Translations under genes and position numbers: made by a program
The notes under the pieces: model-generated
What the model was told of the DNA's origin: nothing
The model's input: only the letters and a program-made list of their open reading frames with translations
Databases searched by the model: none
NCBI GenBank assembly: GCA_019057635.1
Contig: DXJL01000138.1
Coordinates: 1-13,687 of the forward strand
Source of the DNA: Candidatus Heimdallarchaeota archaeon
GTDB lineage: Archaea; Asgardarchaeota; Heimdallarchaeia; Hodarchaeales; Hodarchaeaceae
Direction of reading: 5' to 3'
DNA length: 13,687 nt
Part shown: piece by piece, positions 1 through 13,687 of the stretch
Layout: each line of letters starts with the position of its first letter
Numbering within the stretch: the first letter of the stretch is position 1

Positions 1-495
1 CCACAGGGGAAGCGTGTTGGTAAATCACCAGTGGATGATTATTTTAATTTGCCAAAAGAGCCACGTAGTGGTATAGGCCGCGTTATATTGTTGATGAACG
101 GAAAATTGCCAGTAGTTCCCATGTTCATCCATGGAGCAGGAACAGCATTATCTCGAGGGGGTTTCTTACCACAATACAAGGCATATATCTCTGTGTCATT
201 CGGGGATCCCCTATCCTTTGAAGAATATGAGAAGGAGGGGGGATGGAAAGAAGACGATCCTGATTTTTTCCCTATAGCGAAAAAGATTGCTACACGCGTC
301 ATGACAGCTATTAATGAGCTAATGCTTGAACAAGAGCAACAATTCTTCACAATCATTGAGAGGAAATATAAAAGGCCAATTAATCAAATTTCTGAAGATT
401 TACGCAAGGATAGGTCTTTTCAAAGATATCTCCGTAATTTGTGCAACTATTCTCCAAAAGAGTTGCAGCAAATCCTGGATCAATTAACACCTTAG
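1..495 (+). CDS. Lysophospholipid/glycerol acyltransferase (PlsC/LPLAT family), C-terminal part; 5'-truncated by the window edge
   Basis: Frame 1 is open from base 1 (PQGKRVGKSPVDDYF...), so the GTG at 31 is not the true start. PQGKR matches the LPLAT block III FPEG(T)R motif. It is followed by 'PRSGIGRVIL', 'LPVVPMFIHG' (block IV) and 'ISVSFGDPL', all typical of PlsC-like enzymes. The catalytic HxxxxD would lie upstream of the window. Confidence 0.8.
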   Translation, partial: PQGKRVGKSPVDDYFNLPKEPRSGIGRVILLMNGKLPVVPMFIHGAGTALSRGGFLPQYKAYISVSFGDPLSFEEYEKEGGWKEDDPDFFPIAKKIATRVMTAINELMLEQEQQFFTIIERKYKRPINQISEDLRKDRSFQRYLRNLCNYSPKELQQILDQLTP

Positions 496-512
496 TAAAA
501 TAGTGACTCAAA

Positions 513-1061
513 ATGCTAGAAGGACCAAACATAATTTTACGTGGACTTGAACTAAATGATGTAGATGAGCTAATGAAGCACTGGAATAACCCAGAGCATC
601 GAAGTAACATTTTAAATAAAACTCCTCAATCTAGGGAAGAGGAAGTTGAATGGATTAAATATGGATGGAAAATTAGAAGCGAGGGGAAAGGTCACATTTT
701 TGGTATCATTCATAAAGAGAATAATCGCTACATTGGACATTTAGAATTGGATATTAAAGACCAAATATCCCAGCGAGGAAGTTTGGGTGTCGTAATTTTT
801 AACACGGAATACTGGAATAAAGGATTTGGAACAGAATCAATGCGCCTGATTAGTGAGTATGCTTTCAATACCCTTAATCTTCATTCCGTAGAATTAGATT
901 TGTTCGCTGATCATCCTCAAGCCCAACGCTGTTATGAAAAAGTGGGATTCAAACTTATGGGAAGACACCGTGATGCGTATTATCATGAGGGAAAATATGT
1001 TGATTCGATAATCATGGATTTATTAAGTTCAGAATGGGATACAGGAAAAATGACTATCTAA
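513..1061 (+). CDS. GNAT family N-acetyltransferase, RimJ/RimL-like
   Basis: 182 aa. N-terminal 'IILRGLELND', acetyl-CoA-binding motif 'YWNKGFGTESM', 'AFNTLNLHSV' and 'RCYEKVGFKLMG' are standard RimJ/RimL signatures. Starts 17 bp after the acyltransferase, so likely co-transcribed. Confidence 0.92.
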   Translation: MLEGPNIILRGLELNDVDELMKHWNNPEHRSNILNKTPQSREEEVEWIKYGWKIRSEGKGHIFGIIHKENNRYIGHLELDIKDQISQRGSLGVVIFNTEYWNKGFGTESMRLISEYAFNTLNLHSVELDLFADHPQAQRCYEKVGFKLMGRHRDAYYHEGKYVDSIIMDLLSSEWDTGKMTI

Positions 1062-1321: not shown

Positions 1322-2551
1322 CTATACTATCTGTTGCGTAATGACATCAACTAATATCGCTCCTGCGATAGCAGTGGAATTTTTTAAGCCAGAAATGTCT
1401 ACTTTATCTGGAGTATCAAATGCTGTATGCATATAGCTCGGAGCGGTAAATTGAGCCAAACCAAATGTTGGGATTTTCCGGTGTGCAAAATGAACCGCAT
1501 CTGTTCCATGAGGAGGGCGTAAACTCATTTTAATGTCAAAACCTCTCGATTCAACAAAGTCAACAATATGATTATGCATTGGTATACTGTTGGAAGTAAA
1601 TGCACCTCTTACCCCTCCTTTAATATTTGTACAGTCATAATTACACATTAAGGACACATTAGGGGTTTTATCACTATCAATGTAATCCTTTACATAAGCT
1701 TCAGAACCAAGAATTCCTAGTTCTTCCCCTGAAAAGAAAATAAAGCGTAAAGAATTTGGTAAACTATCTAAAATAGGTGATTTACTGATCGTTTCAGCTA
1801 ATCCTAAGACAGTAGAAATACCTGTACCATTATCAAAAGCTCCTGGACCTATATCCCATGTATCATAGTGAGCACCAGATATCACCATATTATCAGATTT
1901 ACCATATAAATCTCCTATTATATTATAAGATGACTTATTTACCTTTTTTCCTTTTATTGAAAGAGTAATAGCACCTTTTCCCCGTTTCTGCATCCTATCT
2001 ATTAATTTTCCTGTTTCATATGAACAGGATAAAGCTGGTATTTCAGTGAAATCATTTCCTATACTACCTGTCTCCAAAACTCCTCCTAATGTACTTGACA
2101 TTTGAATGAAACCAATTGCTCCTCCTTCAACAGCTTTTTTGAACATGTCCTTCCTACTCATACCCCCATGACGCTGTTTAGTAGGTGTTGCAAGAAGAAT
2201 CTTTCCTTGGAAGCTTGCACGTTCGAAGGATTTTTCAGAGGGATTATCAAGGATATAACACTCACCTGAAAGGTCTTCAGATTTAGAAAAATGAAATGGA
2301 ATAGCAGCTAACGATTTCTTATCTAGAAAGAACTCTGCTATTTCTTTCTCCCAACAAGGATGTTCAAAACGGTGTGTATGAGTTTCTAACCCATATTCCT
2401 CAAGTTTCTTTTTGATGTACTCACCAGCTAGATGAGCTGACTCACTTCCAGCAGGACGAGAACCAATTGTATCACAAATATAATTCAAATTTTGTGACAC
2501 ATCTGTAGAACTCCAAATGCTTCCAATAACATCACCTATGTTATCTCTCAT
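1322..2551 (-). CDS. M28 family metallopeptidase with PA-type insert (paralog B), no signal peptide
   Basis: 409 aa. 'IGSRPAGS' start motif; co-catalytic zinc ligands GAHYDTW, GAFDNGTG, SGEELG, NYDC and YMHTAFDT. PA-like insert 'FQGKILL...AVEGGAIGFI...IPALSCSYETG'. Confidence 0.93.
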   Translation of the reverse strand: MRDNIGDVIGSIWSSTDVSQNLNYICDTIGSRPAGSESAHLAGEYIKKKLEEYGLETHTHRFEHPCWEKEIAEFFLDKKSLAAIPFHFSKSEDLSGECYILDNPSEKSFERASFQGKILLATPTKQRHGGMSRKDMFKKAVEGGAIGFIQMSSTLGGVLETGSIGNDFTEIPALSCSYETGKLIDRMQKRGKGAITLSIKGKKVNKSSYNIIGDLYGKSDNMVISGAHYDTWDIGPGAFDNGTGISTVLGLAETISKSPILDSLPNSLRFIFFSGEELGILGSEAYVKDYIDSDKTPNVSLMCNYDCTNIKGGVRGAFTSNSIPMHNHIVDFVESRGFDIKMSLRPPHGTDAVHFAHRKIPTFGLAQFTAPSYMHTAFDTPDKVDISGLKNSTAIAGAILVDVITQQIV

Positions 2552-2566
2552 TTCACTTCACTCTTT

Positions 2567-3787
2567 TCAGGTATATTTTTGTCGAATAATCTCCCCTAAT
2601 ACTGCTCCTGCAATTGCAGTTGAATTTTTCAACGAATCTTCTGTCAATTTCTCCGGGGTATCAAAGGCTGTATGCATGTAGGATGGTTTTGTCTTATCAA
2701 TTTGTTCTAAACTTACGACTGGAATTTTCGATAGATAAAAAGGAAAACCATCTGTTCCAAATGGGGGACGAGTGTTGATAGTGGAATCAAAATTAAAATA
2801 CTCGAGTAGATGACCTAAAGTATCATTAATTGCATTAGAATTGGAAACAGAAATAGTTCTCTGTCCTCTCGGATAAGCTGTACAATCAAAATTGACCATA
2901 AGAGGAACTGAAACTTCTCTTGACTCAACAATCTCCTTTTTGTAAGCCGTAGATCCTTTGAATCCTAATTCCTCTGCACTGAACGCGATAAACTGAAGAT
3001 TAACTTTGAGTTGCTCTAGTTGTGAGTATACTTCAGCGAGTTTGAGTAAGGTTGCTATACCAGTCCCATTGTCAAATGCGCCAGGACCATTTTCCCAAGT
3101 ATCATAATGAGCTCCTAGGATAATTGTCTCATCTGATCCAGTATTAATATTTCCTATAACATTTTTTCCAATGGCTAACCCAACTTTTCCTTTTACATTA
3201 ATTGTAACCGTAACTCCACCTTGTTGGGACTTTCTTCTCAAAAAATGCCCTGCTTCATAAGAAATACAAACTGCAGGAATTTCAGCTATTCCCTTGGTCG
3301 AGATAATTCCTGTTTCCACTATACCACCAGGAGTTTTAGCAACTTGAATATACGCGATTGCACCACCTTCGACAGCTTTCTTAAGAATTTCTGTTCTATG
3401 CATTCCCATTCCATGGGATGCTTCAGCAAGAAGAAGTTTCCCGTCAAATCGAGCATGTTCAAAAGCTTTTTTAGAGGGATTTGCAATGTAATAACAATCA
3501 CCTGACAGCTGACCATTACCTGAAAGATTGAATGGTATTGCAGGGAATGTTTGGTTTTCAATAGCAAAAGAAAATTCTTCTGGTGACCAAGAATTGTGAG
3601 TAAATTCATGAGTGGACGTTATTAGATTACCAATTTCAAATTCTGTTTGAATGAAGTCTGCAGCTTGATCAGCTGCATCTGAACCTGATGGTCGGGGGCC
3701 GATTTTGTCACATAAATGAATGATTGGTGAAAGGATTTGTTTTGATGCCCAAATTTCACTTATCACACCTTTTACAATATTTGTCAT
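2567..3787 (-). CDS. M28 family metallopeptidase with PA-type insert (paralog A), no signal peptide
   Basis: 406 aa. 'IGPRPSGS', GAHYDTW, GAFDNGTG, SAEELG, NFDC and YMHTAFDT motifs. Collinear with 1322..2551 over its whole length, separated by a 15-bp gap. Confidence 0.93.
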   Translation of the reverse strand: MTNIVKGVISEIWASKQILSPIIHLCDKIGPRPSGSDAADQAADFIQTEFEIGNLITSTHEFTHNSWSPEEFSFAIENQTFPAIPFNLSGNGQLSGDCYYIANPSKKAFEHARFDGKLLLAEASHGMGMHRTEILKKAVEGGAIAYIQVAKTPGGIVETGIISTKGIAEIPAVCISYEAGHFLRRKSQQGGVTVTINVKGKVGLAIGKNVIGNINTGSDETIILGAHYDTWENGPGAFDNGTGIATLLKLAEVYSQLEQLKVNLQFIAFSAEELGFKGSTAYKKEIVESREVSVPLMVNFDCTAYPRGQRTISVSNSNAINDTLGHLLEYFNFDSTINTRPPFGTDGFPFYLSKIPVVSLEQIDKTKPSYMHTAFDTPEKLTEDSLKNSTAIAGAVLGEIIRQKYT

Positions 3788-3817
3788 TGCGGTTCACAAA
3801 GATCCTTTGAACAGTCT

Positions 3818-5230
3818 TTATCCCATCATTGGAGGCATTTTCATACTTGTTTTCTTTGGTTTACTAGAATTAACAGCTATATCAGAGAAAACTACAGAAG
3901 GGGATACTACGGATTCCATCATCTTAGAATCATTACCTACGGCGATGATTTTCTTTAACCATTGCAATCCATTTCCAGCCATGGAAACTCCAATAACTGG
4001 ACTAATTATTTCTCCATTTTTAATCCTGAGAACACGAGTTGGAAATATTGTGAAATCTGTTGTCATTGGATTCCCAAGAAAGATACCAGCTGGATAACCA
4101 ATCAAAATTCCATTATCGGTTTGAGAGATTAACTCAGCTTGGGTTTTCTCCCCTTCACCGATCACTCTATCACGTGCTCCAATCGTAGGGAGAGAGGTAT
4201 ATGATCTTGCACCATGGCCAATTCCTCGTAAAGCATTACCCGTGGGTTCTACACCAGCTTTCTTAGCACTCGAATAATCAAAAAGAAAATTCGTGAGAAT
4301 TCCGTTTTTAATAATTGGGGTAGTGGAACTAGGTGTACCTTCATCATCTACTGGGGCGGCTTTAATTCCTCCATCCAGAAGACCGTCGTCAATGAGTGTT
4401 AGAGCTTTTGATCCGACCTGAGTTCCTAAGTCATTTAATGTCAAAATACTTCGATTAGTTAATGCTAAATTCCCCTTGAAGATTACTCTGCTTATACCAA
4501 TAAAAAAGATAGCAGCGGCAAAGGGTTCCATAATAACATCCATGTTTCCTCCCTGCACTGGTGTACTCTGTTGAAACATGTCTACTGTTCTCTGAGCAGC
4601 ATCTAAAGCCAAATTTTCAAAATCATAGGAGAGTTTTATTCCACCTGTAAATGAATTTTCAGAGAACCGATTTTCCCCATAGGAACCCACAGCAGAAAAA
4701 CTAGCAGTATAGCTTCCACGATTATAAGAATAATTTAAGCCTGAAGAATTAGATATTGCACGTTTGCCAAATTTGACTTGAAAGCTACCTTGAACATTAC
4801 TGAGGTTTTTATCAAGATCAAGTGCACTCCTTCGTGCGTCTACAAGTGAAGAAATTATTTCTTCAACCTGAATATTTTTCAAATCATCTAATCTCGGCTT
4901 GAATGCTGGAATATGACCCTCTAAAGGAAATCCAGAAAAGTCAGGATCATCTTCACGTATTTTTGCAATCCTAATCGCCTCCAGGATTTCTGTTTCAGCA
5001 TTTTGTAAATCAAGAGAAGATGAAGAAGTAAAAGCCCATTTTTTTCCAATGGCAACTCTTACTCCAATACCTGCAGTTACACTCGAGTTAGTGTCAATGG
5101 CTTCCCCATCGTGACTGATAGATATCCGTTTTTCTTTTACACAAAATATTTCAGTTTGTTCTGCACCATTAGCTAATCCATAGCGTACAAGCTTTTCAGT
5201 AATATTCGGTAGTTGTTCATAATCACTCAT
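3818..5230 (-). CDS. pmbA: TldE/PmbA family protein (non-catalytic subunit of the TldD/E protease)
   Basis: 470 aa. 'GAEQTEIF', 'GIGVRVAIG', 'ISNSSG', 'PVDDEGTP', 'IIKNGILTNFL' and 'PTGNALR'. No HExxGH motif. Start overlaps the tldD stop (ATGA, 5227-5230). Confidence 0.9.
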   Translation of the reverse strand: MSDYEQLPNITEKLVRYGLANGAEQTEIFCVKEKRISISHDGEAIDTNSSVTAGIGVRVAIGKKWAFTSSSSLDLQNAETEILEAIRIAKIREDDPDFSGFPLEGHIPAFKPRLDDLKNIQVEEIISSLVDARRSALDLDKNLSNVQGSFQVKFGKRAISNSSGLNYSYNRGSYTASFSAVGSYGENRFSENSFTGGIKLSYDFENLALDAAQRTVDMFQQSTPVQGGNMDVIMEPFAAAIFFIGISRVIFKGNLALTNRSILTLNDLGTQVGSKALTLIDDGLLDGGIKAAPVDDEGTPSSTTPIIKNGILTNFLFDYSSAKKAGVEPTGNALRGIGHGARSYTSLPTIGARDRVIGEGEKTQAELISQTDNGILIGYPAGIFLGNPMTTDFTIFPTRVLRIKNGEIISPVIGVSMAGNGLQWLKKIIAVGNDSKMMESVVSPSVVFSDIAVNSSKPKKTSMKMPPMMG

Positions 5231-6681
5231 TTCATCATCCCCATCATGGGCATCCTAGGTTGTGCTATTGAGGTAACCGAAATGTCCCTAAATCGTATAT
5301 ATGTTCCCCCTAATCCAACAAGTGCCCTTTGACCCCCCTTTCCACATCCTCCAAAACCACAGTCCACCTCTAAACTAAAATCACGACCCACAGCATCTAT
5401 TTTCTTTAGGTAATCTAGAATATTTCCATTGAGTGTAACACTCGAAATAATATCAGTAAGTTCTCCTCTCTCAATTAGATATCCAACTTGACTCCGAAAT
5501 GAGAACTTACCAGTAGTTCCTGACTCTCCTCCTGCATGTCCCTTCAAAAACAGTCCATTTGTAACATCTTCCACCATTTCATCAAATGAATGGTCATGTG
5601 GGAGGAAGGAAGTATTACTCATTCGAACAATGGGTGGATAACCATAATCTGAGGCCCTACTACTTCCAGTACTTACCGATCCAAGTTTATAAGCGTTTTT
5701 TCGATCAGACATATAACTTTCTAAAATACCTTTGTTGAGAATGATGTTTTGTTTGCCAATTACACCTTCATCATCAAGAAGATTCCATGCTCCTTGCTGA
5801 AGTGTTGGATCATCTATTATGGAGACAAAATCAGGAGCTAAACGCTCTCCTAATCTGTCAGTAAGCGCTGATGCACGTGTTGTGATAGCATCCGCTTCAG
5901 TCATGTGGCCAAAAGATTCATGTGCGAGAAGTCCTGCAAAAGCGGGATCTATGATAACGTCATATCGACCTGAATTGATAGATTTACCCTCTATCATCAT
6001 ACTAACTGTTTTTCCTATTTCTTCTGCCAAGTTACCTTTTTCTAAGAGTGTGTACAGATCTCGGATACCAAAGGTACCTCCCTTACGATCAGCATAAGTC
6101 TGGAATTTTCCCATCTTCCTCATTGTCGCATCTCCCTTATAACCAACCCCATCAACGATGAATGTCACATCAGAACCCTCCGTTGTTATTATGTGCTTAT
6201 ATTGAATTGTTCCTGCCAAACCACAGCTTGCAGAAGAAACATCCTCTTGCTTTATTTCATCTACATGTGCTAGGGCATAATCCTTAACGTCTTTCAAGTC
6301 TGTTGAGAATATTGAATCTTTTGATGTATGAACTAAATGTTGGGTTTCTATTGGTTGCCCTGCAAAATGGACTTCATCATTGGAAGAGAGACTCGCGAGA
6401 GTACGACTACTTTGGTTAGCTTCCTCAATGATTTCACTAAGACTCCCTTTGGAAATATTGCTCGTAGATACAAACGCGAGTGGTGCTCCCTTCTCTGATT
6501 GAACTCGAATACCAATTCCAGTTTCAACGCTTCGTGTAATTTCCGCAATTTTTGAATCCCGAGCAATCAATTTCAATTCGAGTTGTTTGGTATATCTAAT
6601 ATCTCCATAATAGACATTTCTCTGATTCAATGCAGTAATTGCATAATCCATAAACTCTATGTAATCATTTGTAACTTCCAT
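5227..6681 (-). CDS. tldD: TldD family zinc metalloprotease (catalytic subunit)
   Basis: 484 aa. 'YGDIRY', 'GIGIRV', catalytic 'LAHESFGHMTEAD' (5905-5922), 'DDEG', 'PIVRMSNT' and C-terminal Cys ligand motif 'GGCGKGGQ'. Confidence 0.94.
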   Translation of the reverse strand: MEVTNDYIEFMDYAITALNQRNVYYGDIRYTKQLELKLIARDSKIAEITRSVETGIGIRVQSEKGAPLAFVSTSNISKGSLSEIIEEANQSSRTLASLSSNDEVHFAGQPIETQHLVHTSKDSIFSTDLKDVKDYALAHVDEIKQEDVSSASCGLAGTIQYKHIITTEGSDVTFIVDGVGYKGDATMRKMGKFQTYADRKGGTFGIRDLYTLLEKGNLAEEIGKTVSMMIEGKSINSGRYDVIIDPAFAGLLAHESFGHMTEADAITTRASALTDRLGERLAPDFVSIIDDPTLQQGAWNLLDDEGVIGKQNIILNKGILESYMSDRKNAYKLGSVSTGSSRASDYGYPPIVRMSNTSFLPHDHSFDEMVEDVTNGLFLKGHAGGESGTTGKFSFRSQVGYLIERGELTDIISSVTLNGNILDYLKKIDAVGRDFSLEVDCGFGGCGKGGQRALVGLGGTYIRFRDISVTSIAQPRMPMMGMMK

Positions 6682-6715
6682 TGGTTATTTCTCTCTGTTA
6701 GGGGGGAATTATTAT

Positions 6716-8455
6716 TCAATCACGTTTAATAACGAATTTTCTACCTTCAACACGCCATTTGAGTGACAGTTGTCTAATCATGTTTAGAACATCAAATGAA
6801 GCTTTGTTGAAATTAGTACTACTTTGTGCCCAACCCGAACTTTCACCAAAAGATGAATATGGATTAACTTGTGCAAAAACTTTCATTGTTTGAACATTAG
6901 GTTCTTCAATGCTCCACATTGATATTAAAGCATAAGTTCCCTCTGCAGAAAAAACTGCAACATCTAATTTAAAAGATCTTTTTATCCTATCACCCTCAAT
7001 ACTCTGAGTTTGTACAGGCCATTTACGTTTAACCTTGAAAAACGTGGGTACATCTATTCTAGTTTGAATGTAGCTAGCATAATCATCAAAATCTTGTGGT
7101 TCAAGCGTAATGGGGATTTCTTCTTCGTCAAATGTGTATTGTTGAGTCAACATTTCCCCGAGTCCAGGTTTCCAAGATCTTTTCAGACTTGGAACGACAG
7201 CGGTTGAAGCTTTCCGTGAAGGATAGATTGCGGAGAGTACACTTAATATGACTGCTATTAAGATTGTTAGGAATAACCAGTTAAAATCATATTTTTCGGG
7301 AGTAATACTGGTTTGAAAACCAAGGATAATACCTGTAAGAGAAAATAAAATTGCACCAATATATCCCAAAGTTCCGCCAATAGCACCAAAAATCATACTT
7401 TCAAACATGAAATTATATTTAATATGACTAGGATTAGCACCTACGCTAGACCAAACTTCAATATCTTTCATACGTGCAGAAATCGCCCCAAGTAGGGTAT
7501 TTAAAATTATTAAACCAGCGATGATTAATACAAAGATCATAAAGGTGAATCCTCTTACAGAAATCTGTGTATCAACGGAATACTTCCGTCGCTCAAAACC
7601 ATCTATTACTGTAATTTCTCTAGTCTGACCAACTTTGATCGGAAGTAATTGTTGGATTAACTCAAGATGTTCTGTATCAGATTCATAGCTTACTTGAATT
7701 TCGTTATAGGCATTGTCAGTAATGAAACCTTCATTTATTGCGGGTAATAATCGCCAAAGTGACTGGAAAGACATGAATGCCACGTTAGCGCTCGGAATTG
7801 GTTGATGGGTCCCCGACTCAACATCTTCAGGAAGAATCCAATTTCCAGTGAAATCAGTGAATGTGTAAAGAATAGAAGCATCAATAATCCCTGATATATT
7901 ATAAAAATCTGTTTGAATGGTAACCTGATCCCCTATTTGTAGTTGTAGATCATTAGCTAAGTCATCAGAAATACAGATGTCATTCTCAGTTTGAGGTAAT
8001 TCCCCCACACTTAAGACATGGGAAAGGTTCGAGATTTCATTTTCTAATGTAAAATTACTCGCAAAAGGAAATAAGATGGAGCGTAGGATATCTGAGCTGT
8101 TTTTTATAATTAACTGGTTGTAGCTTAAACGTCCCATTAAGCGAATGCGAGGAATACTGGAGGTTATACTCGTGATTGTCTTCAATTGATCAAAATCGTC
8201 CTGATTAAAGAAATGGCCATAATCATGAATTACCATACCTTCTCCAGAACTTGTGTATGTGTACTCGGAAACACTAATTGAAGCACTAGATACAATTGAA
8301 ACAGAAAGCAAGAAACTAAACATAGCTACAAATATCGTTAGTATTGTAAGAATCGTATTTCTGCGCTGGCGTGAAAGATTGCGTACAGATATATTTAACA
8401 TAAATCCAGCTGTAGAACCTAACAAGGTTTCAATGCTCTTCTGGAAATTAACCAT
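6716..8455 (-). CDS. FtsX/MacB-like ABC transporter permease with large extracytoplasmic domain and extra C-terminal soluble domain
   Basis: 579 aa. 'SVRNLSRQRRNTILTILTIFVA' precedes TM1. A ~250-aa soluble domain carries 'GELPQTENDICISDDLANDLQLQIGDQV' (MacB-like periplasmic core). FtsX domain 'ILNTLLGAISARMKDIEVWSSVGANPSHIKYNFMFE' is followed by further TMs and 'YPSRKAS'. GGAGA lies upstream of the ATG. Confidence 0.88.
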   Translation of the reverse strand: MVNFQKSIETLLGSTAGFMLNISVRNLSRQRRNTILTILTIFVAMFSFLLSVSIVSSASISVSEYTYTSSGEGMVIHDYGHFFNQDDFDQLKTITSITSSIPRIRLMGRLSYNQLIIKNSSDILRSILFPFASNFTLENEISNLSHVLSVGELPQTENDICISDDLANDLQLQIGDQVTIQTDFYNISGIIDASILYTFTDFTGNWILPEDVESGTHQPIPSANVAFMSFQSLWRLLPAINEGFITDNAYNEIQVSYESDTEHLELIQQLLPIKVGQTREITVIDGFERRKYSVDTQISVRGFTFMIFVLIIAGLIILNTLLGAISARMKDIEVWSSVGANPSHIKYNFMFESMIFGAIGGTLGYIGAILFSLTGIILGFQTSITPEKYDFNWLFLTILIAVILSVLSAIYPSRKASTAVVPSLKRSWKPGLGEMLTQQYTFDEEEIPITLEPQDFDDYASYIQTRIDVPTFFKVKRKWPVQTQSIEGDRIKRSFKLDVAVFSAEGTYALISMWSIEEPNVQTMKVFAQVNPYSSFGESSGWAQSSTNFNKASFDVLNMIRQLSLKWRVEGRKFVIKRD

Positions 8456-8602
8456 AAATCTATCTCCGCAAATGAAGGCTAAATTATATATTGATATATT
8501 TTATGATGATAAAGAAAATTTCCTTAGATAATATTCTATATTTGCTAAATTAAATCCGAGTACTGTTAAACATGCAAATCTCCCTACCAAATTACTAAAG
8601 GA

Positions 8603-8638
8603 TATGGACTTATCCATAGATGAAAAAGGAGTTATCCT
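8603..8638. promoter_or_regulatory. Candidate tandem operator: two GGA-N4-TCC palindromes
   Basis: TATGGA-ctta-TCCATA (8603-8618) and AGGA-gtta-TCCT (8627-8638). The shared core GGASTTATCC lies at 8606-8615 and 8628-8637, 22 bp apart, near the middle of the divergent intergenic region. Confidence 0.4.
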
Positions 8639-8671
8639 CATTTTTTTTACGATAAATTTGGTGAGATTTAC

Positions 8672-8679
8672 TTTAAATA
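8672..8679 (+). promoter_or_regulatory. Possible archaeal TATA box upstream of the OPT gene
   Basis: TTTAAATA matches the archaeal TTTAWATA consensus, about 130 bp upstream of the OPT start. The region is AT-rich, so a chance match is possible. Confidence 0.3.
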
Positions 8680-8809
8680 TTCAATATATGCCGTAACTCT
8701 TAAGAATAAGGGAGAAAGACTTGCTTTTATTGTTTTTACGTGTAAATAACCCATAAATCTCTTATTCTCAATATACAATCTGGAAATAACAGACAAGAGG
8801 TAAGAATCG

Positions 8810-11029
8810 ATGAGCGATTATAGAGCAGAAGAGGTGCTAGAAGCCTCAGCAGTTAATGTTACTAAAAAACGGGAGATGTCATTACGGGTAGTACTGGCTA
8901 TGACCGTTCTAGGTGGATTTTTTTCATTTGCAGCTACATACGCAGATATGACAACAGGAATTTTCAGTGGCTGGGCCTTTATGTTTGTCGCTGGCTTAAT
9001 AATCTCTAGATATTTTGCATGGACTGGAGAAAAAGCCACAAAGCAAGAATTGGGATTAGTCTTAGCAGCAACACCTGCTTTATCATCATCAACGGTCGTT
9101 TTTTGGATTCAATTTGCAACTCATGAAAAAATAATCGATGCTGGAATAACACTACCTTGGTGGATGTTACCAGATATTAATTCAAGTATTATCGCCGATA
9201 GAATACCTATTGCAGTTGATTGGCTTTTTCCTATTATCTTCTTTTTCCTCCTTTACCAAATCGGTATTTTAAGCGGATTAGGTTTTGGTTTCATCCTCAG
9301 AAAGTATTATATGGAATTAGAGATTATGCCATGGCCTATTCATTCGCTTAAAGCTGAAACCGTACAAAATCTTGCCTCTGGACAAATGGATTATCGGTTT
9401 AAATATTTCGTGAGAGGTCTAATTGGTGCAACCATAGTAATGGCATTCCTGTACATTCCAAATACTCTAGACGTTAATCTGCCTGACTTGATGTATAGCA
9501 TTACTAATATCGAACCTATCAGATCCATTCTAGACTGGCTTCCTTTATTGAATCCTGCTTTACCTGTGGATGATCCAGGAACTCGGGGGAAGATAATTGA
9601 AACAAGTATTTTCTTCACAGAAGAGTTATGGAATATTCATCCAATATTGAAAGGAGCATTTTTTGCTATTAGCTTCAATGCTTTCTTCTTAATTTTAGGC
9701 TTCTTGGTTCCCAAGGAAGTTTCTTTTGGGGCCCTTCTAGGAGCCCTCACATTTTCCTTAGTGGTTATGCCAATGCTAGCTTTTCTGTGGACTATAGGAT
9801 TCAATCCTTACGGACAGTATGCAGATCTTTCTTGGTTCGCTGAGGGAATAAATTTTGAAGGATTATGGTCATTTCTTACGTATACTAGTGAAGGGGGTTC
9901 TAAAGGAGCCATAATGGCACTTTGGGGTGAATCTCAAAGTATTTGGGGAATATCGTTCTCCGCAGCAATAATCTTTGTAGGATCAATGCTTCCCATTCTA
10001 CTTTCAAGCAAATTGTTAGTTGCATCTCTTAAAGATCTAAAGAAAATGCGGACTGTTTCAAAGCAAGGTGAATTGCCTTTAACTGCGAGTTTATTAGTTT
10101 TCTTTGGAGTAGGGGTTATTTATGGTGTGATTTGGATATTCTTATCCGATTATTTCGATCCACTTTGGATTATTGTAGTCCTCTTCTTAGTTACCCTTTT
10201 TCCGCTATTATCCAATCTGATGATAACTAGATCCCTCGGAACCATGGGAATGGGAGTTGCACCCTCACCAGAATTGTTTTCTCTTACAATTTTCTTCTCC
10301 GGGATTCGGATGAACTATCCCGCTTATTCTGTAGGTAATGTAACGTTTTCCGCGCAGCAATCAGGTTGTGGGTATATTGCTCATTGTGTCATGGCAGAAC
10401 AGATCAATTTAACTTATTGGAAAGTCGGAGCAAGTGAATTTATTCGACGTGGCGTACCTATGCTTATTGGTCCCTTTGTAGCCTTGTTTCTCTGGAGTGC
10501 TTATGGGCTTAGGTCAGAGAAGTTACCAACGCAGGCCTGGGATCCTGGAATTGAGACTTCTCTTGCCTTTTTGTCTGGTAGCTTAGAAGTTTTTAAGATT
10601 CTTCCTCTTTTATTGGGCGCTCTTGCAGGTATAATCCTTGTTTTGATTCGGATTCCGTTAGGATTTTCCCCTATTAATCCTATAGGTGTTGGTATTGGAA
10701 CAGCGATGCCTCCTTTCTTGATTGTTACAATGGGCATTGGGGGTTTAATTAGAATATTGTTCATCAAAAGTAAGGGAGTGGAAGGTTTCATGGATATCGG
10801 TATGCCAATTGGAGCTGGAGCATTAACGGGTGTTGGTGTGATAACGGCAGTAGATGTATTTATTAATCTCTATTTTGCGTTTGATTCTGGAGCAATTACT
10901 ATGATTGTACTTGGGATTAGCCTAATTCTAGTTGCTATAATTATATTCTCAATAGTGACCAGAAAGAAGAATCTTGGTTATCTCAGAACTCCCAAGAACA
11001 CAAAATTTGATGATACATTAGAAGAATAG
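8810..11029 (+). CDS. OPT/YSL-superfamily oligopeptide transporter
   Basis: 739 aa, highly hydrophobic with many TM segments. 'MSLRVVLAM', 'ATKQELGLV', 'IMPWPIHSLKAETVQ' (cf. OPT LPFP...AETL), 'GFLVP' and 'GVGIGTAMPP' fit the family. No Walker motifs. AAGAGGT ribosome-binding site upstream. Confidence 0.82.
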   Translation: MSDYRAEEVLEASAVNVTKKREMSLRVVLAMTVLGGFFSFAATYADMTTGIFSGWAFMFVAGLIISRYFAWTGEKATKQELGLVLAATPALSSSTVVFWIQFATHEKIIDAGITLPWWMLPDINSSIIADRIPIAVDWLFPIIFFFLLYQIGILSGLGFGFILRKYYMELEIMPWPIHSLKAETVQNLASGQMDYRFKYFVRGLIGATIVMAFLYIPNTLDVNLPDLMYSITNIEPIRSILDWLPLLNPALPVDDPGTRGKIIETSIFFTEELWNIHPILKGAFFAISFNAFFLILGFLVPKEVSFGALLGALTFSLVVMPMLAFLWTIGFNPYGQYADLSWFAEGINFEGLWSFLTYTSEGGSKGAIMALWGESQSIWGISFSAAIIFVGSMLPILLSSKLLVASLKDLKKMRTVSKQGELPLTASLLVFFGVGVIYGVIWIFLSDYFDPLWIIVVLFLVTLFPLLSNLMITRSLGTMGMGVAPSPELFSLTIFFSGIRMNYPAYSVGNVTFSAQQSGCGYIAHCVMAEQINLTYWKVGASEFIRRGVPMLIGPFVALFLWSAYGLRSEKLPTQAWDPGIETSLAFLSGSLEVFKILPLLLGALAGIILVLIRIPLGFSPINPIGVGIGTAMPPFLIVTMGIGGLIRILFIKSKGVEGFMDIGMPIGAGALTGVGVITAVDVFINLYFAFDSGAITMIVLGISLILVAIIIFSIVTRKKNLGYLRTPKNTKFDDTLEE

Positions 11030-11035
11030 AAATGA

Positions 11036-11090
11036 TTTATTCTTCTCTCCTCTTTTTCTATCCTGGGTTCACATTTTTTGTACTTTTTCT
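11036..11090 (+). terminator. Possible archaeal oligo-T terminator after the OPT gene
   Basis: Pyrimidine-rich tract with T5 (11053-11057), T6 (11074-11079) and T5 (11084-11088) runs, and no GC hairpin. Confidence 0.35.
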
Positions 11091-11162
11091 TAAATATATA
11101 ATTAATACCAATCAAGTTATTGTCTAATTACTCCTAATACTTTCCAGTCAAGAGGTTTGTGA

Positions 11163-12548
11163 TTGCACGAGATTTTAACACTTATTAACCAACTGTGTAA
11201 GGAAAAAGGGGTTAAATATTCTGAAATCAGGTTAACTGATCTTAATAGTATGGAGTTGACGTTTAGTCAAGGGAGAAAAGAGTGGGTACAAACGTCTAAT
11301 CTCATCGAATTACAATTATCTATATGGATAGATGAATATTTCGGTCATAGTCATACTACATCCGTTTGTGAACAATCTCTTAATCGATTAGTTGAGAATG
11401 CAGTTGAGTCTCTACAAGCATTCAGACAAGTGAATGATGTTATTTTACCAGACCGAATTCTTGGTTTCAAAAATAATAAAGGAACAGATCACTTATCCGA
11501 AGGTAATGACTCTGAGGTGCGGGAAAAAGAAAAAATTCAATTTATCAAAAAATTTGATTCAGTAATTAAGGGAGTATCACCAAAAATCCAAACTGCATTT
11601 AGATATCAAGATAGGGAAGGGATCTTGTATCTTGGAAATTCCGATGGCACTTTAATCTTTAATAAGATATCAGAATTTTTCTTGGAATATAGTATGAAAT
11701 ATGAGTTTGCCCTAAAAAAACTCCATCGGTCATTTACCTTAGCTGGAGCCCTAAATCGTTCCAATTTTACACCTAAACTTGCTCAAACAATCGGTAAAGC
11801 AAAAGCACTCAGATTTCTGAATTCAGCAGTCGTAACGTTACCCCCAAAGAAAAGAATGCCCGTAATAATGGACGGAAATCTTACTGGAACCATTCTTCAT
11901 GAATTAATTCATGGTCTCGATGGTGATTTTGCATTATCAGGGAGTCCTTGGAGAAAAAAGCATAAGAAAAGAATTTTTTCCAAATCTCTAACTATTCATG
12001 ATGTACCGAATTATTCAGACTCACGATTGATCAAATTTGCTCATGATGCCGAAGGCTTTCCAAGTAAAAGATCACCTGTAATAGTAAATGGTGTTTTAAA
12101 CAGTTTCATTACAGATTCTAATTCAGCACAAAGATTAAAGGTTACCAACAGTTACAATGCACGTTTATCTTTAAATAATCAATATCTTTTTCCTGCCTCA
12201 ACAAATCTCGTGGTTGAGGCGGGTAAAGTAAGTTTAGAAGATATGTTGACGAAAATTCAGCAAGGAGTTTTATGCCAAGGAGCATTAGAGGTATCAGTTG
12301 ACTGGCAGAATGATATGATTAGGATTTTACCCGAACAATCCATTCTCTTTACTGATGGAAATTTGCATAAAAATCTCCCTTTATCAGTATTGATCACCTC
12401 CCCTATTGAGGATTTTACAACAGGCCTTAAAGATATCGGAAAAAAGTTATTTATTTCAAATATACATTGTACGAAAGGTGGAGGAATAATCTGTGGTGTA
12501 GTGTCTCCAACCATGTCATTCGAGCGATTTCAAGTCCAAGAAAGATAG
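11163..12548 (+). CDS. Divergent TldD-like metalloprotease (variant HExxH motif)
   Basis: 461 aa, TTG start with AAGAGGT upstream. 'YSEIRL', 'GNSDGT', 'GTILHELIHGLDGD', 'HDAEG', 'VIVNGVLNSFI', 'PASTNLVVEAG' and 'HCTKGGG...SPT' align with TldD landmarks. Confidence 0.85.
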   Translation: MHEILTLINQLCKEKGVKYSEIRLTDLNSMELTFSQGRKEWVQTSNLIELQLSIWIDEYFGHSHTTSVCEQSLNRLVENAVESLQAFRQVNDVILPDRILGFKNNKGTDHLSEGNDSEVREKEKIQFIKKFDSVIKGVSPKIQTAFRYQDREGILYLGNSDGTLIFNKISEFFLEYSMKYEFALKKLHRSFTLAGALNRSNFTPKLAQTIGKAKALRFLNSAVVTLPPKKRMPVIMDGNLTGTILHELIHGLDGDFALSGSPWRKKHKKRIFSKSLTIHDVPNYSDSRLIKFAHDAEGFPSKRSPVIVNGVLNSFITDSNSAQRLKVTNSYNARLSLNNQYLFPASTNLVVEAGKVSLEDMLTKIQQGVLCQGALEVSVDWQNDMIRILPEQSILFTDGNLHKNLPLSVLITSPIEDFTTGLKDIGKKLFISNIHCTKGGGIICGVVSPTMSFERFQVQER

Positions 12549-12567
12549 ATGAGAGGAAGAAGTAAGT

Positions 12568-13687
12568 ATGGAATCAACTCAAAATGCATTGTTGACTAAA
12601 ACAGAAGCTGTGTACAAAACTGTAATGGATTCTGGAGCTGTTACTGCAGAGGTATTTGGAGCACAGATGTTTAGTAAACAAGTGTTGTTTTCCTCAAGTA
12701 GAATTGTCGATCTTTCATCATCAGAAGAATTTGGATTTGGTATTCGTTACCATAAGGATAATCGGATGATTTTCCTAACAATCGATGGATTTAATGAAAA
12801 ATTATTTAAGAAAAAACTTAATCCGTCATTTGCATCTCCAACCCAAGCTTTTTCTTCTGTACCATTTGATTTTGCATGTGAAATCCCCTCTATTAGCTCT
12901 GCTTTTAGTAAGCAATATGATGCAAGAATTGCAGAATTATCACTATGCGATTTAAAAGAACATGCTCAATCTCTCAGAGGATTAGTACAAGCTCATAAAT
13001 CACCCATGATCCTAGACTCTGGTGTTATAGCTATTAAAACTCAAATTACATCCTTAATTAATTCTAATGACCTACAAATTAGCTATTCTAATTCTTTTAT
13101 ATTAACACAAGCCCGATTAATTGCAGGACTTAAAAATCAGATCATTTTTGAAAAAAATTATAGGAAAATTCATCGAAATCTTGATAATGGCATATTAACA
13201 GAATTTGATTCTGAACTTGACGGATCAATTAATTTTACCAAGCCAAAGAGAATTAGGGATAATCAAATCCTCCCTATTGTCTTCAATAGTCGTGCAATGT
13301 GTCAGATTGGAGATCTAATACTTCGTCCTCTTTTTTCAAAATTCGCAAATTCGTCCTCTCCAACTACTATGTCACAAATATCTCCCTTGATTGACATACG
13401 AGAAGAATCTAACGACCCCTCACGTGTAGGTTCTCATCCATTTGATCACGAGGGAGTGCAGACAAAGACATTGCAATTATATAGAGAAAGTAAACCAACA
13501 GAATGGCCCAGGGATTTACGATGGGTTGGAATTCATGATCAATCACCTTCAGGAAACACTTTGCGAGGAATCCCAGATATGATGGAGAGTCCAATCCACC
13601 GCAACTCTCCTTCAAAGATTCTAACAAATATAACAATCGAAGCAATTAAGCACTCAGATGATAAATTACAGGAGAGTATAACACGAG
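12568..13687 (+). CDS. Divergent TldE/PmbA-like protein; 3'-truncated by the window edge (not in the ORF track)
   Basis: My translation from ATG 12568 is open for 373 codons to the window end: MESTQNALL...SGAVTAEVFG...FGFGIRYHKD...LINSNDLQISY...VGSHPFDHEGVQTK...SPSGNTLRG...LTNITIE. These match PmbA motifs (AEVF, GxGIR, NSxG, PFDxEG, TGN). No HExxxH in the expected position. Starts 19 bp after the TldD-like gene, with GAGAGG upstream. Confidence 0.85.
   Translation, partial: MESTQNALLTKTEAVYKTVMDSGAVTAEVFGAQMFSKQVLFSSSRIVDLSSSEEFGFGIRYHKDNRMIFLTIDGFNEKLFKKKLNPSFASPTQAFSSVPFDFACEIPSISSAFSKQYDARIAELSLCDLKEHAQSLRGLVQAHKSPMILDSGVIAIKTQITSLINSNDLQISYSNSFILTQARLIAGLKNQIIFEKNYRKIHRNLDNGILTEFDSELDGSINFTKPKRIRDNQILPIVFNSRAMCQIGDLILRPLFSKFANSSSPTTMSQISPLIDIREESNDPSRVGSHPFDHEGVQTKTLQLYRESKPTEWPRDLRWVGIHDQSPSGNTLRGIPDMMESPIHRNSPSKILTNITIEAIKHSDDKLQESITR

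Follow-up and report, generated by a model that had tools for sequence, protein, structure and literature searches.

Introduction

In Lactococcus lactis, the opp operon for a peptide transporter is followed by pepO, the gene of an endopeptidase. Proteins of the OPT family import oligopeptides, the OPT/YSL transporters also carry metal-nicotianamine complexes, and M28 enzymes are aminopeptidases. TldD and TldE form a protease which we take to be family M103 of MEROPS. According to Ghilarov et al. (2017; PMC5810440), the Escherichia coli TldD/TldE protease binds peptides independently of their sequence, truncates unfolded peptides processively with the N-terminus first and releases short pieces, and it is the leader peptidase of microcin B17. 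In this study, we describe a gene island of Candidatus Heimdallarchaeota archaeon, a member of the Hodarchaeales, in which proteins of these families are encoded side by side. The stretch of DNA that was analysed, called the window hereafter, is an entire contig of 13,687 bp (C112) from a genome of 3.19 Mb in 214 contigs with 36% G+C. It carries genes for an FtsX/MacB-type permease (Perm579), an OPT-like membrane protein, two TldD/TldE pairs (pair 1, TldD1/TldE1; pair 2, TldD2/TldE2) and two M28 peptidases (M28a and M28b). We show that these genes belong to a larger cluster whose order is conserved, and we consider it about an even chance (roughly 0.5) that this island serves the uptake of oligopeptides followed by their endo- and then exoproteolysis in the cytosol.

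Results

A conserved island that extends beyond the window

The arrangement of the genes is beyond chance, since their order is kept in every relative that has them. It is identical wherever contigs let it be read: two relatives have the whole array on one contig, and two more distant ones have it on two contigs each, in the same order and at 39-87% amino-acid identity, the right-arm order of one of these resting on match coordinates only. Genes beyond M28b, and outside the cluster generally, vary among the relatives. Of the 21 other genus genomes, four have a full-length orthologue of Perm579 (identities of 99, 85, 64 and 60%), whereas none of 19 genomes from other genera of the order and class has one, and full-length relatives of Perm579 form only seven clusters among 5.8 billion clustered proteins. 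TldD2 orthologues are present in five of the 22 genus genomes, the window's own included, and these are the same five that have Perm579. The OPT-like protein has orthologues in four of 301 Asgard genomes sampled, all within the five island genomes; the fifth island genome, outside that sample, has one at 91% identity. In the remaining Asgard genomes searched, no orthologue of Perm579, the OPT-like protein or TldD2 was found. The island is an accessory one, limited to a few species of Hodarchaeales. The initial annotation had proposed an integrated cluster; the orthologues are not scattered, synteny recurs, presence and absence are identical, and the cluster is therefore real and integrated.

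The window is most of a larger island of about 20 kb, which extends beyond its right edge. In the window's own genome the island is divided over four contigs, whereas it is contiguous in a close relative (locus L019), onto which these contigs map in the order C55-C9-C77-C112. The final 468 bp of the window (13220-13687) overlap the start of C77 at 97.2% identity, and a second overlap, of 536 bp at 85% identity, joins the end of C77 to the start of C9. With both overlaps mismatched, the assembly breaks fall where strains or paralogues differ, and the first ATPase gene of C9 may come from another strain than that of C77. Beyond the right edge follow, in order, the rest of TldE2, a gene for a cytosolic, Cys-rich, small zinc-ribbon-like protein of 128 amino acids (aa), p128, one for a minimal FtsX permease of 203 aa with four transmembrane (TM) helices and without ectodomain (FtsX203), two ATP-binding cassette (ABC) ATPase genes, ABC1 and ABC2, and then, convergent to these, TldE3 and TldD3.

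The eight open reading frames (ORFs) of the initial annotation, with their strands and gaps, were all borne out, and their coordinates match exactly (Table 1). That annotation also recommended inspecting the DNA beyond the right edge for an ABC ATPase, a precursor peptide and YcaO or radical SAM genes: two MacB/LolD-type ATPases are present there, while no precursor, YcaO or radical SAM gene was seen in about 46 kb of the contiguous relative. It counted two TldD/TldE pairs; the island holds three. PF19289 matches number 12-16 in the five island genomes versus 1-10 in the other 17, an excess from which it follows that all three pairs belong to the island.

Table 1 Features of the island inside the window, from left to right
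Feature	Position (bp)	Strand	Length	Remarks
M28b	1322-2551	-	409 aa	gap of 15 bp to M28a; Pfam Peptidase_M28, E 2.7e-31
M28a	2567-3787	-	406 aa	gap of 30 bp to TldE1; Pfam Peptidase_M28, E 1.1e-33
TldE1, PmbA-type	3818-5230	-	470 aa	4-bp overlap with TldD1; three PmbA_TldD Pfam domains
TldD1	5227-6681	-	484 aa	gap of 34 bp to Perm579; HESFGH and C-terminal Cys ligand
Perm579, large FtsX/MacB-type permease subunit	6716-8455	-		Pfam FtsX, 2.3e-13; MacB_PCD, 3.7e-7
Divergent control region	8456-8809		354 bp	between the Perm579 and OPT-like genes
OPT-like polytopic membrane protein	8810-11029	+	739 aa	divergent member of the OPT superfamily
TldD2 (TldD')	11163-12548	+	461 aa	gap of 133 bp to the OPT-like gene; PmbA_TldD Pfam, 2.7e-30
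TldE2 (TldE')	12568-13687	+	373 of ~467 aa	gap of 19 bp; gene cut by the contig end, rest on contig C77

The TldD/TldE pairs

PF19289 scores above its cut-off in all four Tld proteins of the window; PF01523 and PF19290 match pair 1 as well, and there the PmbA_TldD_3rd domain reaches E 1e-56 to 1e-58. For TldE2, the full-length copy of the relative (L019:9869-11272) gives a Pfam match of 9.5e-26 against 2.1e-5 for the cut copy of the window. TldD1 aligns throughout its length with E. coli TldD (5nj5_A, residues 17-469, E 2.7e-48) with the HExxxH motif and the Cys ligand kept, its Cys falling in the ligand region of the E. coli protein; orthologues of TldD1 share the motif, and TldD3 likewise has HESVGH (HExxxH) and the Cys ligand. 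TldD2 carries HELIH (HExxH) at residue 246, a one-residue deletion relative to 5nj5_A, and retains the Cys ligand; this spacing is found in the window copy, in three aligned orthologues (one of them with HELCH) and in six of six database clusters, down to 39% identity. With its motif altered in this way, TldD2 is not to be assumed active. The TldE proteins have no HE..H motif, and such a motif-less partner adjoins TldD in all pairs.

The genome contains seven TldD/TldE pairs, three of them in the island. We built a tree of 20 sequences from these seven pairs and the orthologues of relatives, with the full-length copies of a relative replacing the truncated sequences. In this tree, the D proteins are set apart from the E proteins, every D diverges along with its own E, and the three island pairs are deep paralogues, with pair 2 on a long branch. 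A recent duplication of the arms is ruled out by this tree, and the mirror image that the initial annotation saw in the two arms is superficial: with the pairs so deeply paralogous, the arms are not duplicates of each other. The neighbours of the other four pairs (L004, L005, L006, L002) are unrelated, namely a cupin and a pair of ABC exporter half-transporters; a TrmB regulator; two Glycos_transf_3 genes, near which a Roadblock gene lies; and a DNA methylase. The C-termini of pair 1 are rich in Met, Pro and Lys (PRMPMMGMMK in TldD1, window 5227-5260; SMKMPPMMG in TldE1, 3818-3850). Orthologues retain these tails, which are lacking in four other pairs of the genome; a similar stretch occurs in TldE3. 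The tails could dock a partner or bind a metal.

The M28 peptidases

M28a and M28b are PA-domain M28 aminopeptidases with 47% identity to each other. Both score above the cut-off of PF04389 and have all the His, Asp, Glu-Glu, Asp and His metal and catalytic motifs, the ligand residues being presumably those of the Aeromonas and Streptomyces M28 enzymes; in M28b the alignment reads GAHYDTW, GAFDNGTG, SGEELG, NYDCT and YMHTAFD. Three relatives have M28a orthologues at 96, 70 and 57% identity, and one further relative has M28b alone. Near the island there is also an M28c-type protein that has lost the metal and catalytic motifs. A catalytically degenerate M28 (Glu-Glu replaced by Ser-Lys, the last His by Asn) stands beside an uncharacterised protein of about 370 aa near the island in three relatives (L025:13676-16138; L024:1691-5181; L023:986-3409).

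No island peptidase has an N-terminal hydrophobic segment in a hydropathy scan and on inspection by eye, and the peptidases should therefore act in the cytoplasm.

The permease, its putative ABC partners and the OPT-like protein

Perm579 consists of TM1, a variable ectodomain (residues ~56-293), three further TM helices and a cytosolic C-terminal domain (~436-579); in the alignment the C-terminal domain is nearly invariant and the ectodomain is the variable part. An AlphaFold2 (AF2) model from a 55-row alignment has a mean predicted local distance difference test score (pLDDT) of 82.9. In Foldseek this model matched LolCDE, MacB, HrtB, YtrF, FtsX and BceB (9rld_E, E 4.9e-14; 5gko_A, 1.3e-13), and VIA aligned it with 5xu1_S (Z 19.1, root-mean-square deviation (rmsd) 18.1, 330 residues) and 8tzj_C (Z 16.4, rmsd 3.3, 166 residues). 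As modelled, Perm579 has the four-TM FtsX fold with the ectodomain between TM1 and TM2. Its C-terminal domain matched Bet v 1, START, helix-grip and KA1 folds at Z 7-9, a range common for unrelated folds (1vjh_A, Z 8.9, rmsd 3.4, 118 aligned; 5iri_B, Z 8.5, rmsd 2.8, 94 aligned).

Perm579 itself contains no ATPase. Those of the island are ABC1 and ABC2 alone, encoded beside FtsX203, and both score best against the MacB, LolD, DevA and FtsE models. Complex prediction weakly suggests a Perm579-FtsX203 dimer: the pair scored 0.35 and the best of three controls 0.00, the runs agreed in at least 88% of contacts, and partner pLDDT was at least 67. The mark used was reached by 116 of 157 solved complexes and by two of 215 mismatched pairs, and scores at or below 0.60 include just 18 of the 157 and both mismatches. 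Solved structures of comparable dimers exist (MacB, LolCDE), so the pass may be due to likeness alone.

In PADLOC, Perm579 matches the profile PDLC01991 'CARF_m8--CARF_LolE_TM' at E 2.9e-55 over profile positions 165-679 of 810. The seven members of the Perm579 family that were scanned match it at E 2.9e-55 to 1e-131, none of them past position 682 of 810. Some relatives of this permease family may carry an extra sensor domain. A role in anti-phage defence found no support: no PADLOC system matched, the PDLC01991 match apparently covers the permease part only, and the ATPase matches are generic P-loop ones. No CRISPR-Cas genes were seen near the island.

The OPT-like protein matches PF03169 at E 1.1e-3 and 18.2 bits, under the cut-off of 25.8 bits. 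The assignment to OPT made by the initial annotation is thus weak on Pfam alone, and it is backed by the ESM Atlas, in which 26 of the 30 nearest clusters fall in the OPT set, and by the protein's relatives. Searched exhaustively, 1.84 billion representatives returned 35 relatives at E <= 1e-3, with only one close cluster; 31 of them (four short fragments were left out) were aligned with six locus proteins, and 24 of these 37 match PF03169 at E <= 1e-3, the best at 6e-23. The hydropathy plot has 18 hydrophobic peaks, several of them overlapping. An AF2 model from a 6-row alignment reached a mean pLDDT of 31.5, and the profile of that alignment found nothing at E <= 1 among the PDB sequences.

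We surveyed metagenomic loci of the best 80 of the 195 relatives that p128 has in the metagenome collection (L033-L112) with home-made, narrow hidden Markov models at E <= 1e-5, many of the loci being short. An ABC gene was found in 61 of the 80, a small FtsX in 24, a large FtsX in four and TldD/TldE in three. The usual neighbours of p128 are, just upstream, a MacB-type ATPase and, downstream, a small FtsX. Three loci have, directly upstream, a large FtsX protein whose head domains are different (CarboxypepD_reg in the one that was scanned). The set of p128, ABC and FtsX has the appearance of an ABC module general to archaea.

A paralogous machine in the genus

Many genomes of the genus contain a paralogous cluster with p128', FtsX' (200 aa), ABC1', ABC2', a DUF6785/DUF6784 protein, a protein of 1501 aa and a second OPT-like protein. 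The first four are 36-66% identical to their island counterparts. The 1501-aa protein begins with a signal peptide and a PA/M28 head, after which come three TM helices, MacB_PCD, FtsX and a Perm579-like C-terminal domain; its M28 head is degenerate, with the Glu-Glu and two His motifs lost. Both the M28 and the FtsX Pfam domain are present in 51 of 56 database relatives of this protein, one of which comes from the bacterium Abditibacterium. OPT-like genes flank it in both clusters examined, and a glycoside hydrolase gene stands at the edge of one. The occurrence of an M28-FtsX fusion beside OPT-like proteins is therefore an independent link between these families. FtsX-type, OPT-like and M28 modules travel together in the order. 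Compared with this paralogous cluster, the permease and the OPT-like protein of the island look like parts of one machine rather than two alternative transporters.

Control region and neighbouring genes

The control region contains the palindrome TATGGACTTATCCATA at 8603-8618, and an alignment of four orthologous regions reveals conserved blocks. An inverted repeat, TATGGA...TCCATA, is present in both divergent regions of the island, in the window at 8603-8618 with a spacer of 4 bases and in contig C55 at 1237 with one of 10 bases. The motif was chosen after inspection, and its half-sites are not fully kept in two of the orthologous regions. Genome-wide, TATGGA-N(0-14)-TCCATA has nine copies against 9.0 in shuffles, two of the nine lying in the divergent regions of the island, so that a putative operator shared by the two regions is a lead only. 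Scans for sigma-70 promoters and for terminators, with patterns not made for archaea, gave fewer or no more matches than shuffles. We found no conserved small ORF in 8456-8809, where the orthologous regions differ by many indels (the other gaps were read by eye only), and no Rfam match in the window.

When the ORFs of the contiguous relative were scanned with Pfam over about 46 kb, no YcaO, radical-SAM/SPASM, lanthipeptide or other modifying enzyme came up. There is a PqqD-like protein of 113 aa (PF05402, E 1.2e-8) about 8 kb beyond the window's right edge in that relative; its gene sits between two secreted surface proteins with Heimdall-CTERM-type anchors (L019:20-2782; contig C55 in the own genome). 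A PqqD-like gene lies near the paralogous machine too (L030:1255-1719, L031:1979-2485). Farther out in the relative are a PNPOx-like protein, a major facilitator superfamily (MFS) gene and a degenerate M28 with a partner of no assigned family. Upstream of TldD3, a 252-aa protein (L019:2988-3746) resembles a split barrel of the pyridoxamine-5'-phosphate-oxidase type in the ESM Atlas and has no Pfam match. In three relatives, TldE3 is followed by a CbiX-like gene with the class II chelatase fold (L019:6636-7175; L021:6084-6593; L032:8058-8585). The window's own genome has lost the CbiX-like gene, and ABC2 and TldE3 are only about 100 bp apart there (contig C9, ~1493-1592).

On the left, window positions 1-1061 hold two genes convergent to the island, one of them acyltransferase-like and truncated by the start of the contig (the full-length relative matches PF01553), the other a GNAT acetyltransferase gene. 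The two closest relatives retain both genes and the two distant ones do not, and one close relative has two extra genes (273 aa; 729 aa, beta-helix/NosD-like) between this pair and M28b.

Discussion

From what is established at this locus, that is, the gene content, the linkage, the catalytic motifs, the lack of signal peptides and the permease fold, we infer a substrate, a direction of transport, a composition of the machine and an order of proteolysis. Perm579, FtsX203, the two MacB/LolD-type ATPases and p128 would form a MacB/FtsX-type (type VII) ABC machine that works with the OPT-like protein. The variable ectodomain of Perm579 may engage the substrate outside the cell, with ATP hydrolysis as the driving force, and the OPT-like protein would carry peptides inward. 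The three TldD/TldE cages, if they behave like E. coli TldD/TldE, would start at the N-terminus of unfolded peptides and chop them into short pieces, and M28a and M28b might then trim the pieces to amino acids for fermentation. Two cultured strains of Hodarchaeales depend on peptides and did not grow on a mixture of free amino acids (bioRxiv 10.1101/2025.02.26.640444). The initial annotation left a choice between import followed by endo- and exoproteolysis and the maturation, export and re-uptake of a specific peptide. The former fits better, given the lack of signal peptides and the intact motifs, while the latter finds no YcaO, radical-SAM or precursor gene in the roughly 46 kb of the relative.

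Several points weigh against such an uptake system. To our knowledge, the characterised type VII ABC systems are exporters, extractors and mechanotransducers, and no importer is among them. The ATPases and FtsX203 are encoded 4-5 kb from Perm579 and on the other arm, and because of this we can only infer their partnership with it. Membership of the OPT superfamily is distant, and metal chelates are carried by OPT/YSL proteins as well. Among the 80 metagenomic p128 loci there was no OPT-like and no M28 gene, and TldD/TldE occurred in only three, with unrelated genes in between, so that the link to peptidases is particular to this lineage. As 17 of the 22 genomes of the genus lack the island, it is not the general route by which these archaea use peptides. 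Finally, TldD2/TldE2 are 39% identical in a genome pair in which the OPT-like protein and ABC1 are 80-87% identical, and such fast divergence fits an arms race no less well than it fits bulk nutrition.

It is conceivable that the OPT-like protein and the heteromeric FtsX/ABC unit make up one new kind of ATP-assisted importer, on which the C-terminal domain of Perm579 would dock TldD1/TldE1 through the Met/Pro tails so that peptides would be threaded into the protease, a transport-proteolysis metabolon whose three cages, one of them with HExxH, would serve different peptide classes. We regard this more elaborate form of peptide uptake and proteolysis as improbable as a whole.

Fast divergence of TldD2/TldE2 and an accessory distribution (five of 22 genomes) also speak for resistance to, or sensing of, antimicrobial peptides, in which a BceAB-like machine handles a toxic peptide, the OPT-like protein imports it and TldD/TldE and the M28 enzymes destroy it. 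BceB has two FtsX modules, one with an ectodomain and one without, and Perm579 together with FtsX203 resembles a split BceB; BceAB chains are among the Foldseek matches (E 4e-6 to 2.5e-5), and one source labels the relatives 'ABC-type antimicrobial peptide transport system permease', a generic label. However, LolCDE and MacB match Perm579 better than BceAB does, the island has no two-component sensor or regulator, three cages and two aminopeptidases are heavy equipment for one compound, and the glycoside hydrolase gene beside the paralogous machine points to nutrient use. We therefore consider this explanation unlikely. A different proposal is turnover of the cell's own membrane or surface proteins, in which the ABC machine would extract membrane-anchored peptides, such as what remains of signal peptides or C-terminal anchors, in the way that LolCDE extracts lipoproteins, and would pass them to TldD/TldE and M28 in the cytosol. 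LolCDE is among the closest solved folds of Perm579, genes for C-terminally anchored surface proteins are nearby, and the C-terminal domain of Perm579 resembles lipid- and membrane-binding helix-grip and KA1 folds, but only at Z 8-9, which is common for unrelated folds; an accessory island in five of 22 genomes would be strange for housekeeping, and the OPT-like partner is left with no role. Such turnover seems very doubtful to us.

The substrate might also be something other than an ordinary peptide, for instance a metal chelate, a conjugate resembling a peptide, or else a glyco- or acyl-peptide. Carriers of metal chelates are among the members of the OPT family, and some enzymes of the TldD/PmbA family are N-deacetylases. 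TldD/PmbA homologues reportedly occur in lincosamide gene clusters (PMC4351081); the CbiX-like gene after TldE3 in three relatives and the glycoside hydrolase gene beside the paralogous machine can be counted on the same side. The CbiX-like gene is, however, dispensable, since it is missing from the window's own genome, the conserved core has no sugar- or metal-handling genes, and TldD has the motifs, and the M28 enzymes the sites, of peptidases, which makes a substrate of this kind quite improbable. A route like that of peptides that are made by the ribosome and modified after translation (RiPPs), with TldD/TldE removing a leader, M28 trimming, the ABC module exporting and the OPT-like protein re-importing the product, would agree with the presence of that module, with the PqqD-like (peptide-chaperone-type) genes some 8 kb past the edge and near the paralogous cluster, and with the role of TldD/TldE as leader peptidase of microcin B17 (PMC5810440). 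Yet the PqqD-like gene lies between two CTERM-anchored surface proteins, the divergent region contains no conserved small ORF, about 46 kb of the contiguous relative yielded no modifying enzyme, and the removal of one leader needs no three protease pairs; we give this route little credence. The least probable explanation is that the genes are chance neighbours with no functional link. It is true that the other TldD/TldE pairs of the genome have unrelated neighbours (TrmB, glycosyl transferases, ABC exporters), but the order of the island is identical down to 39% identity while the flanks differ, Perm579, the OPT-like protein and TldD2 share the same presence and absence, and M28-FtsX fusion proteins exist.

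The Hodarchaeales are the archaea placed closest to eukaryotes, and their cultured strains live on peptides alone. Their peptide uptake has so far been inferred from standard Opp-type genes, and the island points to a second route. It gives a physiological setting to the archaeal TldD/TldE paralogues, to prokaryotic OPT-like proteins and to type VII machines with a large and a minimal FtsX subunit, and TldD2 offers enzymology a natural HExxxH-to-HExxH variant. If uptake coupled to proteolysis is the true function, the island is a compact and testable model of it; if it is not, the conserved linkage still marks an unassigned function of a machine that is widespread in the order.

We found no paper on DUF6785, nothing relevant among the papers listed for M28, FtsX and OPT together, and, among those listed for TldD/PmbA with a peptide transporter and a gene cluster, no description of a transporter-TldD/TldE locus; the one paper that joins these three terms has TldD/PmbA only in a peptidase table. 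Encoding a transporter alongside the peptidases for what it carries is a known concept, and what is new here is the parts and their combination. The L. lactis proteolytic system embodies the same concept, a peptide transporter encoded with cytosolic peptidases for its cargo. All protein families differ between the two, however, with TldD/TldE and M28 enzymes in the island, no binding protein of the Opp/Dpp type, and an archaeal host.

Compared with TldD/TldE (PmbA) of E. coli, a heterodimeric metalloprotease (PDB 5NJ5 and related entries; Ghilarov et al., 2017, PMC5810440), the island has the same adjacent pairs, three Pfam domains, HExxxH and Cys in TldD1 and TldD3 and a TldE without the motif. 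It differs in its three deeply paralogous pairs, in the HExxH of TldD2 throughout its small family, in the Met/Pro tails of pair 1 and in that its pairs are embedded among transporters and aminopeptidases rather than being free-standing housekeeping genes. The OPT-like protein shares with the OPT/YSL transporters (PF03169) its polytopic character, relatives that match this family and OPT neighbours in the ESM Atlas, whereas the window protein itself lies below the Pfam cut-off and has no sequence match to a solved structure. The type VII ABC systems (MacB, LolCDE, FtsEX, HrtBA, YtrEF and BceAB) resemble the island machine in the four-TM fold with ectodomain of Perm579 and in the models that ABC1 and ABC2 match best. 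In contrast to them, the membrane part of the island machine is probably heteromeric, with one large subunit and one of 203 aa without ectodomain, there are two different ATPases and a zinc-ribbon-like protein, Perm579 carries in addition a conserved cytosolic domain at its C-terminus, the genes of the subunits are found on opposite arms, and the pairing with an OPT-like protein is constant. A further counterpart is the paralogous machine of the same genus, on which we found no paper; it has homologous p128, small FtsX and two ATPases, the FtsX module, the C-terminal domain and an OPT-like partner. Relative to that machine, the large subunit of the island is headless and its M28 enzymes are separate, cytosolic and intact in their motifs, three TldD/TldE pairs have been added, and there is one OPT-like protein instead of two.

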